Source: a phage
Direction: 5' to 3' (one strand)
Length of the DNA: 64,000 nucleotides
Sequence record: PV730299.1
Below the pieces are notes generated by a model. The model had not been told where the DNA came from, did no database searches, and was given only the letters and a program-made list of their open reading frames with translations. This document shows, piece by piece, positions 17,397 through 46,164 of this stretch (position 1 is its first letter; each line of letters opens with the position of its first letter). The translations under genes were made by a program, and so were the position numbers.

Positions 17397-17404
17397 TATA
17401 AATA
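17397..17404 (+). promoter_or_regulatory. T4-type late promoter-like box TATAAATA
   Basis: Exact TATAAATA 34 nt upstream of GTG start of gp54-like gene. Confidence 0.45.
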
Positions 17405-17438: not shown

Positions 17439-18383
17439 GTGGAAGACTATCGCAATTTTATCACACAGATATTACAGCGGGGCTTGTCGCGCAAGAACCG
17501 CTTCAGAGTGACCATCCCTCTACCACCAGGGATCTTTGACTCCAATGCCACTCTGGCTAATGACGGAAAGGCGTACAGAACCAATTCATCTTTTGGTGAC
17601 TTGTTTAAGCAGTCAGCCCGTATTGTAAACGCTTTCTTTGGAGGGACAAACCAGACGTCCCGTTCCCTTCAGATGATGTGTATGGTTGCCTCATTGCCAG
17701 GGGTTGGTATCGACACCACTCCAATGACAAACAACGGTAATCACATCAAGATGCCGAACAACAAGTCCAACGTCGACCTCGACTTGTCATTCTTATTAGC
17801 CAATGACTATTATGAGAAGTCTGTGATGGACAAGTGGAAGAGTCTGATCTTTGATCCACACACCACCAAAATGGGATATTACGAAGACTTCGTGACTGAC
17901 ATATGCATTGAACAGCTTGACACCGAAGATCAAGTGGTCCACCGCGTCTACATCGTCGAGGCTCACCCAATAAATTTCAGTTCTATTGAGCTGGATAAAG
18001 GCGCCACAGACCAGTTCAACCAATACAACATTTCTTTCTCTTACAATAAAGTGCTTTCGGAGACAGAATATGAAACACGCAGCCTTTCCAGCGATTTTCT
18101 TCCTCTCGGCATTGCTGACGCTCTTACCAGTGGTGACTGGGAAACTGCGGCCTCAAAAGCTGGACAGCTTTATCGCAAGGTGAAAGAAGGGAACTTCACA
18201 GGAGAGGCTCTCCTGGCTTACAAACAGCTTGACCAACTTGTAAACAACCTGGCTGGGATAAGCATACAGGACTTCGAGCGCATCTCGGTAGGTATCTCTC
18301 GTGACATCATGGGTAACGATAACCTGACGGCGGCGGAGAAGACAAGCCTGTTGGGAATATTACAAGACGTGATGGGGAAATAA
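17439..18383 (+). CDS. tail tube-family protein (gp19/gp54-like, baseplate tube initiator candidate)
   Basis: 314 aa; N-terminal RKNRFRVTI and CMVASLPGVGIDT...WKS pattern matching T4 gp19/gp48/gp54 tube fold; GTG start with GGAG RBS; TATAAATA box 34 nt upstream. Confidence 0.6.
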   Translation: MEDYRNFITQILQRGLSRKNRFRVTIPLPPGIFDSNATLANDGKAYRTNSSFGDLFKQSARIVNAFFGGTNQTSRSLQMMCMVASLPGVGIDTTPMTNNGNHIKMPNNKSNVDLDLSFLLANDYYEKSVMDKWKSLIFDPHTTKMGYYEDFVTDICIEQLDTEDQVVHRVYIVEAHPINFSSIELDKGATDQFNQYNISFSYNKVLSETEYETRSLSSDFLPLGIADALTSGDWETAASKAGQLYRKVKEGNFTGEALLAYKQLDQLVNNLAGISIQDFERISVGISRDIMGNDNLTAAEKTSLLGILQDVMGK

Positions 18384-34423: not shown

Positions 34424-34777
34424 TTACGACAGCTGCTTCAGTTTGTAGATCGTCTGATAGCACAGTGTCTTGATATCGTCAAGAGTGCTCTGAAGGTGGG
34501 AGTCACACTGCTTGTAGATGCCATCGACGTCTATCACCACACTGTTAATATAGGAGATAGGGTCTGGGTTGTACAATTTGATATTCTCGAATGATGGAAC
34601 ATACTGACCACCCGCACCGATGTATGCTTCGGTAAACGTGTCCAGCAAGTCCTCTAGATCCCCGTAGAACTCCCCGAGTGCCTTGTGCTTGGCATAGGAC
34701 GTTGTAACGAAGTGTAAGGCATGAGAGTGGGCTATAGCAAGCAGTCCACGGTTGATGAAAATACTCGCATTGACCAT
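34424..34777 (-). CDS. hypothetical protein
   Basis: Start moved to MVNAS (AAGGAA RBS). Confidence 0.4.
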   Translation of the reverse strand: MVNASIFINRGLLAIAHSHALHFVTTSYAKHKALGEFYGDLEDLLDTFTEAYIGAGGQYVPSFENIKLYNPDPISYINSVVIDVDGIYKQCDSHLQSTLDDIKTLCYQTIYKLKQLS

Positions 34778-34871
34778 GATTTGTTTCCTTAGAAAAAGAA
34801 ATCCCCCTGTATTTAGGGGGATCCAGTTACAGACCAAGTTCTTTCGCCGTGGCGTCGTCTAGTGCAACCTT

Positions 34872-35441
34872 CTAGACAGGCTTAACACCGAGGAACTTGG
34901 CAATGTCAGCAGCCAGGTTTTTACCCTTGCTGATGTCGTGTTCTTTACCGCCGACAGTAACGATCACATACGGGTCATCTTCACCACCGAAGTTCACGGT
35001 GATCGCCTTGCCGATGCCAGGGATGCCAGAGTATTCGAACTCAGTGCGACCACTCTTGCGAGACTTGCCAGCACCCAGTGCTTTACCGATCATCTTGTCC
35101 ATGTTCGCCAGTTCCTGAGCATAGGATTCGGTCACTTGGCCTTTGTTGGCAGACTTGCCAAAGAAGAATTCGAAGCCGTCATGGACAGCAACGACTTCCT
35201 GACCTTGGGAGATACCGTGAGTCTGGTCTGGGGTCAGCTTCACCTTGATGGTGTTGCCGTTGGTTAACTCCAGGTTGTAGACATCCGCCTGATTGTCAGG
35301 GGTGATCTGGGTCACGGTAGCGCCGGAACACCACTGGGTGCCGTCAGCTTGCTTGGTGATGGATACGGTCTTACCTTGGACACCAGCGTGGGTCTGAGGT
35401 TTAGCGGCTTGTTCTTTAAAATATTCGATAAAAGGTTTCAT
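34872..35441 (-). CDS. hypothetical protein, probable late/structural gene
   Basis: 189 aa; GAGGAG RBS; TATAAATA box about 25 nt upstream of ATG. Confidence 0.45.
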   Translation of the reverse strand: MKPFIEYFKEQAAKPQTHAGVQGKTVSITKQADGTQWCSGATVTQITPDNQADVYNLELTNGNTIKVKLTPDQTHGISQGQEVVAVHDGFEFFFGKSANKGQVTESYAQELANMDKMIGKALGAGKSRKSGRTEFEYSGIPGIGKAITVNFGGEDDPYVIVTVGGKEHDISKGKNLAADIAKFLGVKPV

Positions 35442-35466: not shown

Positions 35467-35474
35467 TATTTATA
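35467..35474 (-). promoter_or_regulatory. T4-type late promoter-like box TATAAATA
   Basis: Exact TATAAATA on minus strand about 25 nt upstream of ATG at 35441, immediately after terminator hairpin of the 986-aa gene. Confidence 0.45.
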
Positions 35475-35492
35475 AGCCCCCGAAGGGGCTTT
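35475..35492 (-). terminator. hairpin terminator candidate
   Basis: AGCCCC-cgaa-GGGGCT just downstream of 986-aa gene stop, abutting TATAAATA box. Confidence 0.45.
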
Positions 35493-35498
35493 CGATGA

Positions 35499-38459
35499 TC
35501 AGATCTTAATCTGCATGTTGCCACCCAGGGACTGCTCGTACTCGCTGTATGCGCCTTCCCCGTAGTCTCGTGCCCACTGGTCAGACTGCTGGGCACTATC
35601 CAGAGTCATCAGGTTTGGTTCAGTCGGGTTGTAACCCTTGGACTTCGCATCCCGGTACAGAGTCTGCAGGTACTGGTTGGCGCGGTCAATCTGAGCTTTG
35701 AACTCGCGATATGCCCCTTCAGTTGTGTTGCGGCGGAAGGTGATATCCCAGTCCACGTTCAGAGTCTGACCATCACGGCTTGCATAGATCTGCCAATCCA
35801 GGTCGCGACCTTTTGGTGCGTTGTCGCGGATGGAGTCGGCGTATGCCGCAAGGTCGTCCTTCGGATTGTGCGACGTGCTTTTCAGAAGTAGTGCATGACC
35901 CATACCACCGTTTGACTGAAGAGACCATTTTCCTGTTTCTCTTCCCAGGCGTTCTATGTTGTTGAGTTGGTTTATCGACAATTCAGAAGAGTCAAATAAT
36001 ACCACATCACGTTTTTTGGGGGTTCTCACATAAGGGGTGAGATCAATGTCGATCATCCGGTTTATAAATTCTACCACTTCAGCTTGTTTCTTTGGCAATG
36101 TGGTATTGATATCCGGCGTGTTTGCTACTTTCTCCAGGCGTTTGTTTTCTGCGCTTATCATGGATAGCATAATTTGTGTAACTTTGCCGTCAGACAAGTT
36201 GTAATCATTCCAAATCACTTCACCTTTATCCGTGATGGTTATATCGTTCAAGAACACCTGGTTTGGGTTGTATGACTGACTTTTCAACTGTTGGAGGTTT
36301 CTGGAAAGATATTCCATTTTTGATGAAATCTCATCAATCACACTCTGGACCATATCTTTGTTTAAAGGAAGTTCATATGTCTTTGGATTGTTCAGGGTAC
36401 GCCCTTTCTGAGAGACAATTGGGGTGAATGCAACTTTACCTTTGTCGTAGTAATAGGTCACGTTGGTTATCATAGAAGCACCGGCGTATTTTCCCGTTTC
36501 GGGGAAATTGACATCCCACCGAATGGACATACCGTTGACAGTCTCACCAAACACCATGGCGTTGCGTGGCATCTTCAGGGTTCCAGAGTTGACCAGATCA
36601 TCGCCTTGGGCATTCAGGTCGATAGAACCATAGATGGCCCCGGTAATACGATCTTTCAGCATCAGGGTCTTGTCGCCCTTCTCTGGGATGATTTCCAGCG
36701 GGTGCTTGCCACGCGGAGGCTCTTTGATGAGTTCCAGCAGAGCAGTGTTCCCAGGCTTCACACGATTCAGGACAGCGTCTGACACTGTCAGAGTCCAGTT
36801 TGCGGTTTCTACATAACCCCAGCCCCGAGAACGGCGAATGGCTTTGATAGGGTATGGAGCGCTTGTTGGCACTGCGCTAATTTCCCATTTCCCAGTGTAC
36901 TGGGTCTTGGCAACCTCAAAGATGGACGCAATTACCGCATTGGCGACGTCACGGGCGCTGCCTTTGGCCACGTTCTCCTCTTCAGCAATTTCGCTGAAAA
37001 CTGAGTATTGAATGAAACCAGCGAGGACGTTTGTGAAGTTGACAACGATAACCAACCCGCCTGCCGTCGTGTAACGACCAGCGCCCACACGACGGATGTT
37101 CTCACCAGGAAGAATAGAAGTGTCCAGCCCAACGTTGGTATCAATGATACCCAGAACACGAGCGATGAAACCGCTGTCACGTAATTGATCAACACTGGTT
37201 GCACCCTCGGTCGAATCCGATGCGGATTTAGACACTTTGTTCAACTTGATAGAGACAAGGGTTTCCCCGTTGACACCGATGATATCCCATTCAGTACCCT
37301 GCTCGTTCGAGATGCGGGCAATCTTGCGCTTTGAATTGATGGCACCTTCGTAACGCCCGTTTTTGACCACAACAGAGGCAGTGGCAGCATCAGTCGCACT
37401 TGCTGCATTTGAAAAGTCTGGGTCGGAAATACTGATGTCGACGTCACCGTTTTGAGAACGCATGCGAACACCGTTTTTGAATCGTTCCACGTTTACTTCT
37501 CGAGCACCAAGTCGTTTGGCATCAATAACAGCAGTTCCAGAACCGATAATGTTGGCTGGGTTATTTCTGTCTGAACTGTTTTGAGAACCTTTCCAAAATT
37601 TTGTGGACGCCGTGGTGAAATCATTCAGGATACTGATAGGGACTTGCGGTAATTTCAACTGACGAGCAATGAAATCAGCACTTTGCCCACGCACAGGTTT
37701 CTCATTCATGTATGCGCCAACATACACACCCGGCTCATTGTAGTGGGGAGCGATATTTGCCGTGTTCATGCGGCCTCTCTCCTTACCAGCCCATAACAAC
37801 ATGGGCTGATCCCCGTTTGAAGTCAATTTCCATCCGTTGGAATTATCAGCAGAAGATGACACACCCACATCCGGAGTATTGTTCTGAACCGGAACGTCAC
37901 CGACCTTGTCTGGATCATCCCAGGTGATACCCTGCATCTTCGGACCGTCGAATACCTGAGCCGGATCTTTACCCTTGCGGACCAGCCACACATAACCACG
38001 GTCAGGGACAGGCGCGTAGGTCAGGTCCATGACATTCAGTTTCTGTTTCAGGCCGGACTGGCGGATGATCTTAGGAATCAGGGTCATACCGCGATCCAGC
38101 GCTTTCTTAGAGAAGTTGACAGCAAAGCCATCGATGGTCTTGCCCAGAGGAGTCGCCATGAATTGTTTGGTCGCTTCGATCATGGAAGCGATAACGCGCA
38201 TTGGGTTCTTGAAGCGAGCGATGGCGTCAGGATAGACGGAGCCGCGCTTCTGGCCGATGAAAACCTGACGAACGCTCTTGCCCAGCCCCTGAGGGGTATA
38301 GAACTGAATACGGTATTCCTTTTCATCTTCGTCGATGAAGGTGAAGAACACATCGCCTGCGTTCTTCTTACCCATGGTCAGCTCATACGGAGCGGAGTTG
38401 AACGCTTCGTCCAACTGATCTCTTTCCTGCATGAACTGGAGGAAACTTAGCTTTGACAT
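35499..38459 (-). CDS. large hypothetical protein (986 aa)
   Basis: Long uninterrupted ORF with AGGAG RBS; no polymerase, ATPase or nuclease motifs recognised; hairpin terminator downstream. Confidence 0.55.
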   Translation of the reverse strand: MSKLSFLQFMQERDQLDEAFNSAPYELTMGKKNAGDVFFTFIDEDEKEYRIQFYTPQGLGKSVRQVFIGQKRGSVYPDAIARFKNPMRVIASMIEATKQFMATPLGKTIDGFAVNFSKKALDRGMTLIPKIIRQSGLKQKLNVMDLTYAPVPDRGYVWLVRKGKDPAQVFDGPKMQGITWDDPDKVGDVPVQNNTPDVGVSSSADNSNGWKLTSNGDQPMLLWAGKERGRMNTANIAPHYNEPGVYVGAYMNEKPVRGQSADFIARQLKLPQVPISILNDFTTASTKFWKGSQNSSDRNNPANIIGSGTAVIDAKRLGAREVNVERFKNGVRMRSQNGDVDISISDPDFSNAASATDAATASVVVKNGRYEGAINSKRKIARISNEQGTEWDIIGVNGETLVSIKLNKVSKSASDSTEGATSVDQLRDSGFIARVLGIIDTNVGLDTSILPGENIRRVGAGRYTTAGGLVIVVNFTNVLAGFIQYSVFSEIAEEENVAKGSARDVANAVIASIFEVAKTQYTGKWEISAVPTSAPYPIKAIRRSRGWGYVETANWTLTVSDAVLNRVKPGNTALLELIKEPPRGKHPLEIIPEKGDKTLMLKDRITGAIYGSIDLNAQGDDLVNSGTLKMPRNAMVFGETVNGMSIRWDVNFPETGKYAGASMITNVTYYYDKGKVAFTPIVSQKGRTLNNPKTYELPLNKDMVQSVIDEISSKMEYLSRNLQQLKSQSYNPNQVFLNDITITDKGEVIWNDYNLSDGKVTQIMLSMISAENKRLEKVANTPDINTTLPKKQAEVVEFINRMIDIDLTPYVRTPKKRDVVLFDSSELSINQLNNIERLGRETGKWSLQSNGGMGHALLLKSTSHNPKDDLAAYADSIRDNAPKGRDLDWQIYASRDGQTLNVDWDITFRRNTTEGAYREFKAQIDRANQYLQTLYRDAKSKGYNPTEPNLMTLDSAQQSDQWARDYGEGAYSEYEQSLGGNMQIKI

Positions 38460-38534
38460 TTTATATCTCCTGACTGAATTAATGGCGGTTTCTTCTAATT
38501 AGCGAAACCAAAAGGGAGCGTCAGCCCCCTTATC

Positions 38535-39168: not shown

Positions 39169-39239
39169 GGTGTAGTTCCTGCTTTTCAAGTTGGTGTTGT
39201 ACTGCTTATGGAATGAAGTATAGGGAAGGATATTGAAGA

Positions 39240-39262
39240 AGTAAAGGGGCGAAAGCCCCTTT
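39240..39262 (-). terminator. rho-independent terminator (possibly bidirectional)
   Basis: AGGGGC-gaaa-GCCCCT flanked by T-runs on both strands. Confidence 0.55.
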
Positions 39263-39275
39263 TATTGAATTATTT

Positions 39276-39914
39276 TTACGGCGTCGGATTCGCAACCGGA
39301 ATGTGGGATCGAATACCTGCGATGATATCCTTCAGCTGTGGTTTCCAGCCATTTACCAAACGGGGGAGAGCGATAGCGCCAGGCTGGACCAAAATGATGT
39401 CGCTGCCTGTGATATTGTGCTGAGGGAACTGGGCAAGGTACTGCTCCATGGTGACACCCTCATCAATCAGAACCGCACCGACGTCAGACGATGCGTAGGT
39501 TGCACCCAGACCGTCAACGCCCCACGCCAAAATACCCCAGTCAGGGATGTTGGCTTCAGATGTGATGGTGAATCCAAACACGGTGTTCAGTGAGGTAAAG
39601 GAATAGACATCGTGGGTGAGGTCATACACCAGATACCCCTTGGCCAGCATATCGGCAAAGATCGCGTCCGTATCGCCTGCAGCCGGAGTCGGTACAGTAA
39701 ACAACAACTCGCCCTCAGGAGGGGCAGGATACGTACCGAGGGCATAGAGGCACCATGCGTCAATACACTTCTTGATAAATGCCTCCGGTGCGACATAATC
39801 AGCAAGGCGAACCGTGCCTGAGTACTCGGATACGATGATGCCTTCCTTCGCACCCTGTAGAGCAATGAAGACCAAGATATGTTCATATCCGGCCTGAGAT
39901 GGAGTGATGTTCAT
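39276..39914 (-). CDS. hypothetical protein
   Basis: Start moved to MNITPS (TAATG overlap with upstream gene); terminator downstream. Confidence 0.45.
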   Translation of the reverse strand: MNITPSQAGYEHILVFIALQGAKEGIIVSEYSGTVRLADYVAPEAFIKKCIDAWCLYALGTYPAPPEGELLFTVPTPAAGDTDAIFADMLAKGYLVYDLTHDVYSFTSLNTVFGFTITSEANIPDWGILAWGVDGLGATYASSDVGAVLIDEGVTMEQYLAQFPQHNITGSDIILVQPGAIALPRLVNGWKPQLKDIIAGIRSHIPVANPTP

Positions 39915-40528
39915 TATCTTGTCCTCTTCAGTTTCTCTATCGTGTGCTTGTTCATGGCGATCACCCGAGGATCTACCTCGGAGATGGTCCGGCCTTTGAA
40001 GGACACACATTTCTGAAGATATTTAGCTTTCTTCACGACGTCAGCGGCATAAGCGTTCGATGCAGGATTACGGGCAAAGCCAGCATTGTAAGAGGAGAGG
40101 GATTTGCGGATATTCTGATTGTGATAGGTCAGCCAGAACTGCATCTCATCGAGGGCGGCTTGCGCGGCATATTCTTGGTCGGTCAGCAACTTTATGGCGA
40201 CATTGGCATAGCACTTGCGATTCTTACAACCTTCGCGATCACCAACTGTCTTCACCTTGTTCTGAAAGGCTCCCATGTTGGCCGCCTTGAGGCCGTATCG
40301 CATTGACACTACATCTTCACCAGCGCGGCTCTCTCGCCAAGATATGGCGGCCAGAGTGTAGCCAAGATCTTGTGTCTTGCCTACGTGATAGGCGGTTGCC
40401 ATCGTATTAAGTTGTTGCTCGGAGAAATTATAATCACATTGGGTGGTACTTTGGGAAGCGTGCACATTCCCGCTGGCAATGGTAAAGGTCACGGACAAGG
40501 CCATGGCCTTCAACGTTGTCATCGTCAT
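39914..40528 (-). CDS. secreted lytic transglycosylase-like (SLT domain) protein
   Basis: 204 aa; N-terminal signal peptide (MTMTTLKAMALSVTFTIASGNVHA); SLT-like catalytic context LAAISWRESRAG and NAGFARNPASNAY. Confidence 0.55.
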   Translation of the reverse strand: MTMTTLKAMALSVTFTIASGNVHASQSTTQCDYNFSEQQLNTMATAYHVGKTQDLGYTLAAISWRESRAGEDVVSMRYGLKAANMGAFQNKVKTVGDREGCKNRKCYANVAIKLLTDQEYAAQAALDEMQFWLTYHNQNIRKSLSSYNAGFARNPASNAYAADVVKKAKYLQKCVSFKGRTISEVDPRVIAMNKHTIEKLKRTR

Positions 40529-46156: not shown

Positions 46157-46164
46157 TATAAATA
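46157..46164 (+). promoter_or_regulatory. T4-type late promoter-like box TATAAATA
   Basis: Exact TATAAATA 35 nt upstream of ATG at 46200; overlaps RNase H start region on opposite strand. Confidence 0.45.

Follow-up and report, generated by a model that had tools for sequence, protein, structure and literature searches.

A virion protein of Ackermannviridae with an Alt-type N-terminal domain, a conserved protease motif and a mosaic C-terminal region: a candidate head-internal protein

A widespread 986-residue protein

We analysed a stretch of phage DNA of 64,000 nucleotides (nt; sequence record PV730299.1), called the window hereafter, which is ~98% identical to Escherichia phage vB_EcoM-ZQ1 (Ackermannviridae, Aglimvirinae), and focused on its largest open reading frame (ORF), a gene for 986 amino acids (aa) at positions 35,499 to 38,459. 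We consider it probable that its product is a head-internal protein, processed by the prohead protease and probably ejected, in which an N-terminal carrier domain of the type found in T4 Alt is joined to a mosaic payload other than the ADP-ribosyltransferase (ART) domain of Alt. The gene sits between the gp46/47 recombination genes and the primase and ribonucleotide reductase genes, and not in the tail/neck morphogenesis module. An earlier sequence-only reading had singled it out as the largest gene in the window, with its own ribosome-binding site, and both statements are borne out: the next ORFs have 781, 760 and 747 codons, and a Shine-Dalgarno motif stands 7 nt before the start codon (Table 1). 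The precursor has a mass of 109 kDa, and the predicted mature form has 107 kDa and a pI of 8.8.

The same reading called the gene an ORFan, which it is not. The match of its protein to phrog_3867 extends over the whole length (E=0), tblastn found matches in 357 phage records (phages of Salmonella, Klebsiella, Escherichia, Dickeya, Serratia, Erwinia, Vibrio and Aeromonas), 271 proteins match in a collection of 5.8 billion sequences, and an exhaustive HMMER scan returned 137 cluster representatives at 50% identity. The gene is conserved across Ackermannviridae, being present in every family member examined; its coding sequence shares 97.9% nt identity with that of vB_EcoM-ZQ1, and the orthologs P0001 and P0002 are 98% identical. 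Within the window, no paralog of any of its modules was found elsewhere. In some older records the ortholog is split, as in Dickeya phage LIMEstone1 (ORF082/ORF081; L002, 4001-5597) and Shigella phage Ag3 (orf00109/110/110.1). The LIMEstone1 break falls inside the N-terminal domain, yet virion peptides came from both parts, and in the related Dickeya phage RC-2014 the protein (531 aa) is intact; the split is probably a sequencing or annotation frameshift and not a real one.

Searches of the full protein against Pfam and NCBIfam returned no domain, in line with the earlier observation that it has no recognisable polymerase, ATPase, nuclease or fibre motif. The full-length AlphaFold2 (AF2) model had a predicted local distance difference test score (pLDDT) of 66 and a predicted template-modelling score (pTM) of 0.36, and with Foldseek it had no match in the PDB below E 1e-3; sequence and profile searches of the PDB gave matches at chance level only (gp5 beta-helix, E 0.12; FliL, E 0.13). 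Maps of coverage and conservation, together with the HMMER scan, divide the protein into the modules of Table 1.

Table 1. Features of the gene, of its protein and of the adjoining DNA, with positions in the window.
Feature	Positions	Strand	Remarks
Upstream hairpin and UUUGGUUU, between the preceding small gene and the 986-aa gene	38512..38531	-	folding free energy (dG) -12.4, z -1.5
Shine-Dalgarno AGGAG, 7-nt spacer to ATG	38467..38471	-	direct sequence reading
Complete coding sequence, 986 aa, stop codon included	35499..38459	-	uninterrupted ORF, ATG start
Leader (predicted propeptide), aa 1-18, MSKLSFLQFMQERDQLDE, ends L-D-E	38406..38459	-	predicted prohead-protease cut after E18
Alt-N-type domain, aa 19-180, possible GNAT-like alpha/beta fold	37920..38405	-	basic, pI 9.8
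Disordered linker, aa 181-210	37830..37919	-	pLDDT <50 in both models
Beta-rich core, aa 211-780	36120..37829	-	AF2 pLDDT 70-90; no detectable relatives outside the family
Variable cassette within the core, aa 301-415	37215-37559	-	in only ~half of orthologs (coverage map)
Ip9-like internal-head-protein module, aa 788-860	35880..36098	-	insert in 19/42 orthologs
Acidic C-terminal module, aa 866-986, 'TFRRNT' motif	35502..35864	-	also in ~44 small stand-alone protein clusters
3' hairpin, AAGCCCC-UUCG-GGGGCUU	35474..35491	-	UUCG loop, no U-tract
TATAAATA, T4-type late-promoter consensus	35467..35474	-	serves the downstream 189-aa gene; same element annotated in LIMEstone1
189-aa gene, N-terminus MKPFIEYFKE	34872..35441	-	T4 capsid-targeting-like start; TATAAATA promoter

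Virion presence and protein modules

Orthologs of the 986-aa protein are abundant virion proteins in two independent proteomes, those of LIMEstone1 and of Salmonella phage Sajous1, from which the virion evidence comes. Both parts of the split LIMEstone1 ortholog, ORF082 and ORF081, are listed as confirmed structural proteins: ORF81 was represented by 23 unique peptides covering 55% of its sequence, a peptide number second only to that of the tail sheath, and ORF82 by 4 unique peptides. The LIMEstone1 paper points out that structural proteins without a known function are clustered between ORF78 and ORF85, and reports for every one of its unknown structural proteins a structural counterpart in ViI. 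In Sajous1 the ortholog is gp214 (BLASTP E 7e-156, in three collinear segments), which yielded 196 spectra from CsCl-purified virions, a number exceeded only by those of the major capsid protein (924) and VriC (311) (PMC10892097). The neighbours of gp214 correspond to the genes downstream of the 986-aa gene in the window. The proteome paper on phiD3 contains no data at the level of genes.

The N-terminal domain (N-domain) is the most conserved part of the protein, with a mean identity of 97% within Ackermannviridae, and by itself it is found at the N-terminus of ~80 diverse protein clusters of 300-1,439 aa. We compared a profile of 51 diverse N-domains with a profile of the Alt N-termini of T4 and ten divergent Straboviridae, and hhalign matched them with a probability of 96.0% (E 4.1e-9) over 155 columns that start at the cleavage motif; a dedicated tool repeated the match (95.6%, E 1.1e-8), while reversed or column-shuffled Alt profiles gave probabilities of at most 0.5%. 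Modelled from a deep alignment, the N-domain reached a pLDDT of 86.9 and a pTM of 0.80, and the best Foldseek matches in BFVD, after its own family, were the Alt proteins of phiAS5, 50AhydR13PP, HY03, CF1, SP18 and Henu6 (E 1.6e-6 to 4.6e-5, TM score ~0.6, 14-18% identity); the N-termini of deaminase- and ParB/Srx-annotated proteins were matched as well. By these profile and model comparisons, residues ~15-180 of the 986-aa protein are homologous to the N-terminal domain of Alt (Alt residues ~4-176). The significance of the match required the Alt-family profile, a direct search with the N-domain hidden Markov model against T4 Alt alone scoring only 7 bits, and a homolog search with the 195-aa N-domain alone was uninformative, as it returned only five truncated close relatives.

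The ART domain PF03496 occurs in 5 of 63 diverse N-domain proteins. It is matched by T4 Alt and by the family members P0189, P0190, P0200 and P0252, and P0189 bridges the two groups, as it has both the N-domain and an ART domain matching residues 410-588 of T4 Alt (E 5e-15). PF03496 has no match in the 986-aa protein at E<=1, which therefore shares the N-domain only and is neither an ortholog of Alt nor an enzyme of its kind. In T4 Alt, Pfam annotates no more than residues 374-614 and NCBIfam nothing at all, and Iyer et al. (2017, 2022) discuss the ART domain of Alt and the MuF carrier, not the N-terminal region of Alt. Among the candidates of the sequence-only reading, a host-takeover enzyme finds no support here: no catalytic domain is detectable in the 986-aa protein, although distant family members do carry ART domains.

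E18, the last residue of the leader, is the sole invariant column among the 51 diverse N-domains (51/51, down to 24% identity). The positions around it are conserved as well in these sequences, with L or I at P3 in 46, A or S at P1' in 49 and F at P2' in 44, P2 being free; leaders have 4-43 aa (median 16), and further [LIVM]-x-E motifs occur in 37 of 75. The profile alignment sets E18 on E6 of T4 Alt, from which gp21 removes six residues at ITE-6, as established by experiment (GenBank X15811 annotation; PMC5694885). The propeptides of T4 internal proteins (IPs) have 10-19 aa and their processing is set by the positions of L/I-x-E (PMC9026906); the 18-aa leader falls within this range, has hydrophobic positions and ends in L-x-E. 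Ackermannviridae possess a prohead machinery to match. It comprises a gp21-type protease (Peptidase_S77, E 1.5e-30), a T4_CASP scaffold whose 290 aa hold 16 L/I/V-x-E sites, and a Gp23 capsid protein, which has a propeptide and a Pfam match beginning at residue 62. By homology, cleavage after E18 by the prohead protease is thus strongly predicted. The predicted tryptic peptide across the site is QLDEAFNSAPYELT[M/F]GK, and the predicted semi-tryptic peptide of the cut form is AFNSAPYELT[M/F]GK. Conserved internal or C-terminal L-x-E sites, which could indicate an Alt-like C-terminal trimming, were sought in a conservation map, and none was convincing.

Two modules of the payload also have relatives elsewhere. 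The insert near the C-terminus matches phrog_7673, 'internal head protein' (E 5e-10), and in tblastn searches the ip9/internal head protein genes of many T-even phages. It is homologous to Ip9: BLASTP aligned aa 799-860, 6% of the protein, with residues 30-90 of RB15 Ip9 at 45% identity (E 2e-13). RB15 Ip9 itself begins with the canonical targeting sequence MKTYQEFISE↓A (the arrow follows the Glu of the motif). The small proteins that share the C-terminal module often have a similar start, a [LIVM]-x-E motif lying within the first 25 aa of 26 of the 44, against 24 of 100 background ORFs (Fisher p=1e-4); typical starts are MKTFKEFVKE↓S and MKLTxLxE↓MAAKK. The C-terminal module has no similarity to RB15 Ip5, Ip7, Ip8 or Ip9, or to Alt.

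Large Vibrio phages have two or three tandem paralogs with the Alt-type N-domain, in a syntenic position after an SbcC-like gene. In Vibrio phage D533 (L003, 2424-4637 and 4992-7991) they have 737 and 999 aa. The leaders (LIAE↓AF, LLTE↓AF) are particular to each of the Vibrio paralogs, and their C-terminal regions are unrelated, a pattern suggestive of local duplication and an exchange of payloads.

Flanking signals and neighbouring genes

The gene had been described as an independent transcription unit closed by a terminator hairpin. The hairpin exists (dG -13.1 kcal/mol, z -1.9; 7 of 200 shuffles fold equally well), but a terminator scan did not call it because AUAAAUAACUU, and not a U-tract, comes after the stem. 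We reject an intrinsic terminator given the missing U-tract, the z of -1.9 and the abutting late promoter: the final base of the hairpin is the first base of TATAAATA, an element marked as a late promoter in identical form in the LIMEstone1 annotation. The annotations of relatives include a gp55-like late sigma factor. The hairpin is more likely a stabiliser of the RNA end or a weak terminator. Upstream, the 75-nt spacer before the gene showed no promoter consensus and only a weak hairpin (38512-38531). With no visible promoter of its own and no U-tract behind its 3' hairpin, the independence of the gene as a transcription unit is weakly founded. The possibility of an own late promoter was rejected as well, since TATAAAAT overlaps the start codon and is too near the ATG to serve the gene. 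The nearest promoter-like element is TATACT at 39217-39222 (the 'middle promoter' of LIMEstone1), upstream of two small genes.

Next to TATACT lies a strong hairpin (39238-39262, AAAGGGGC-UUUC-GCCCCUUU, dG -13.5, z -4.0), which the scan detects on both strands; it is read as a terminator on the plus strand also, and on the minus strand the -10-like TATACT comes next. The two elements correspond to the terminator and middle promoter annotated in LIMEstone1. Other exact copies of TATAAATA in the 64 kb occur only at 17397-17404 (+) and 46157-46164 (+), which makes three where 0.67 are expected (3 of 100 shuffles reach three); the former lies 35 nt upstream of the ORF 17439-18383 (+) and may mark another late gene.

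The 986-aa gene belongs to a cluster of genes for virion-detected proteins outside the structural module. Orthologs of the downstream 189-aa protein are in virions (LIMEstone1 ORF80; Sajous1 gp215, 86% identical), and it is likely a small internal head protein. Its gene is the only ORF of the window that matches the N-terminal pattern of capsid targeting sequences (CTS); a weak match to the TOBE domain (E 0.008) is below the cut-off. The virion spectra of Sajous1 gp215, gp216 and gp217 number 32, 20 and 10 (PMC10892097). LIMEstone1 ORF079 and Sajous1 gp216 (L002, 6233-6472; L017, 11659-11898) have 79 aa and start with MKGFQDFLLKE↓A or MKGFPDFLKE↓A. They have no counterpart in the window, where the flanking genes are just 34 nt apart (34837/34872), and the internal-protein-like locus therefore varies in gene content among close relatives. 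The next gene (34424-34837, minus strand) encodes a Dps/ferritin-like DUF5856 protein (phrog_858, 'starvation-inducible transcriptional regulator'), its true start being probably an internal Met at ~34777; its orthologs were detected in purified virions (LIMEstone1 ORF78, 3 peptides; Sajous1 gp217), and the protein has no CTS-like leader.

On the other side, the product of the minus-strand ORF 39914-40528 (204 aa) begins like a signal peptide and matches the SLT lytic-transglycosylase domain at a borderline level (E 4e-4, 20.4 bits against a cut-off of 21.3). Its ortholog Sajous1 gp211, 84% identical to it, is labelled RegB/RNA endonuclease, yet gave 31 virion spectra, and this label looks wrong; a virion-associated transglycosylase of the secreted type would be unusual. 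The DUF7270 gene 39276-39914 (minus strand) starts at an internal Met of the ORF 39276-40010, and this start overlaps the stop codon of the preceding SLT-like gene. Its orthologs are also virion-detected (LIMEstone1 ORF85, 4 peptides), and it forms part of this dispersed group of genes for virion proteins located away from the structural module.

A candidate ejected protein and its relation to known systems

In the scenario that we favour, the precursor would join the prohead's T4-type scaffolding core by means of its leader, its Alt-type N-domain or both, and the gp21-family prohead protease (Peptidase_S77) would cut after Glu18 (L-D-E↓A), at the equivalent of ITE-6 in Alt. Tens of copies or more of the basic mature protein of 107 kDa would then remain with the DNA in the filled head and exit together with it at infection. 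The mosaic of ~800 aa that takes the place of the ART domain, made of the beta-rich core, the optional Ip9-type module and the shared C-terminal module, would most plausibly act early in infection, in host takeover or anti-defence, through binding rather than catalysis. Of the three candidates put forward by the sequence-only reading, an injected internal protein is thus the one favoured by the data, which include the Alt-type N-domain with its conserved protease site, the Ip9 module, the link through the C-terminal module and the two virion proteomes.

On this account, its mode of action resembles that of Alt and of the T-even internal proteins, but it is a strict member of neither group. Like Alt, it has the homologous domain of ~160 aa at the extreme N-terminus, behind a short leader ending in L/I-x-E at a position aligned with ITE-6, and it is a large virion-associated protein encoded outside the main structural module by phages with a T4-type prohead core and Peptidase_S77. 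Unlike Alt, a protein of Straboviridae, it has no ART domain, its payload being an unrelated mosaic, it has no conserved C-terminal L-x-E comparable to LTE-619 of Alt, and its apparent abundance is higher. With the T-even internal proteins (IPI-III, Ip5-Ip9) it shares the homology of aa 799-860 to the body of Ip9 and a leader ending in L-x-E, and the neighbouring gene product starts with MKPFIEYFKE, to be compared with MKTYQEFI(A/S)E of the T4 and RB15 proteins. These are, however, small (8-20 kDa), single-module proteins targeted by a 10-aa peptide, whereas the 986-aa protein exceeds an internal protein five- to tenfold in size and has multiple modules; its Ip9 module is internal, has no targeting peptide of its own and is an optional cassette. 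The combination of a conserved head-incorporation module with swappable C-terminal payloads recalls the MuF-fused effectors, or 'polyvalent proteins' (Iyer et al. 2017, 2022), and the payloads of the Alt-N family include ART, deaminase-annotated, ParB/Srx-annotated and unassigned domains. The likeness is one of logic only: there is no MuF domain (no Pfam match), and the carrier, of a different and possibly GNAT-like fold, would be tied to the T4-type scaffold and protease, not to the portal. The ejection or inner-body proteins of phiKZ-like phages such as SPN3US are also large, abundant and head-internal, with N-terminal propeptides that hold multiple cleavage motifs and are cut at x-x-E by a T4-related protease (PMC5694885), but we detected no relationship to them in sequence or fold, their motif is A/S-x-E and their propeptides are much longer.

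Several points weigh against this scenario. To our knowledge, no experimental role has been defined for the N-terminal domain of Alt itself, and the role of the N-domain as a carrier is one that we infer from its position and combinatorial distribution. The location in the head and not in the tail, the cleavage after E18, the incorporation through the N-domain, the ejection and the activity in the host are likewise steps that we infer. The relationship to Alt is remote (16-17% identity), the invariance of E18 and of the following AFN/D-x-x-PY could come in part from folding constraints, and no catalytic or binding function could be assigned to 80% of the protein by the Pfam, NCBIfam, PDB and Foldseek searches. 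The gene lacks its own late promoter and lies amid early and middle replication genes. Finally, the Sajous1 ortholog gp214 has been labelled 'tail completion protein' (PMC10892097).

This label belongs to a proposal in which gp214-217 form a 'ferrojan horse' tail operon, and it recurs in one GenBank record, that of Klebsiella phage UPM 2146. Virion presence alone cannot separate head from tail, and aa 589-677 have a weak, non-significant similarity to the gp5 beta-helix (E 0.12). A tail protein is nonetheless the explanation to which we give the least credence. All three recognisable modules point to head-internal proteins, the gene lies outside the tail/neck morphogenesis module, and no tail family of Pfam, PHROG or NCBIfam matches the protein, while canonical tail-completion and sheath-stabiliser genes (of the T4 gp3 and gp15 types) are found elsewhere in these genomes. 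Moreover, the GenBank record of Sajous1 calls gp214 a 'hypothetical protein', and the Sajous1 authors saw no dependence on the proposed iron pathway (PMC10892097). The sequence-only reading had named clear homology to a tail fibre or baseplate protein as the observation that would count against its proposals; we found none, and reject such an identity.

There are two other explanations. The protein could be a head-internal assembly or core component (scaffold-associated, DNA-organising or of the inner-body type) that enters the prohead by its Alt-type N-domain and is then retained in the capsid or serves in assembly only, instead of an ejected effector. The high abundance of the protein (196 spectra; 23 peptides), which may exceed the ~40 copies of Alt per T4 head (PMC5694885), the presence of the gene in every family member examined, the lack of a detectable enzymatic payload, and the basic character of the mature protein (pI 8.8) and of the N-domain (pI 9.8), which fits DNA association, are all compatible with such a role. 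Yet the characterised relatives of its modules, which are Alt and the T-even internal proteins, undergo ejection and are not required for assembly (PMC9026906, PMC5694885), and the payload is strongly mosaic, with cassettes that differ between close relatives, as is typical of conflict-related proteins and not of scaffolds. We regard such a role as unlikely. It is very unlikely, in turn, that the N-domain is an active acyl- or carbamoyl-transferase of the GNAT superfamily, and the protein a packaged modifying enzyme. The nearest solved fold is that of phage Mu Mom, but the motif Q/R-x-x-G-x-G/A that binds the pyrophosphate of coenzyme A and conserved catalytic residues are absent from the N-domain, where only structural residues are near-invariant, and the 986-aa protein has no Pfam GNAT match.

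A broader proposal, which we put forward tentatively and do not expect to hold in all its parts, extends the scenario of the packaged and ejected protein to other phages. The first ~160 residues of Alt would be a separable capsid-delivery carrier of GNAT-like fold with interchangeable payloads, occurring in Straboviridae, Ackermannviridae, large Vibrio and Aeromonas phages and many uncultured phages, always N-terminal and behind a gp21-type site. The payloads would comprise ADP-ribosyltransferases, deaminase- and ParB/Srx-annotated proteins, Ip9-type modules and large domains of unassigned fold, and the version of Ackermannviridae, which ranks with the most abundant virion proteins, would deliver an injected anti-defence or host-takeover mosaic of novel fold and rapid exchange. 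The locus, in which we count as neighbours the Dps-like protein and the two proteins of 189 and 79 aa with capsid-targeting-like starts, would then be an internal-protein locus misread as a tail 'ferrojan horse' operon.

That proteins can be packaged, trimmed by a protease and ejected is a well-established principle. What our analysis adds is a testable identity for an unannotated virion protein, among the most abundant ones of Ackermannviridae, a family widely used in the biocontrol of Salmonella, E. coli O157, Klebsiella and Dickeya, and it corrects the published reading of this protein as a 'tail completion protein' of a 'ferrojan horse'. It suggests that the N-terminal region of Alt is a reusable loading module for head-packaged proteins in phages of the T4 superfamily, comparable to MuF. 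If this is true, the carrier domain would provide a handle for finding injected effectors and anti-defence proteins, and possibly an alternative of larger capacity to the 10-aa capsid targeting sequence for the delivery of proteins by engineered phages.

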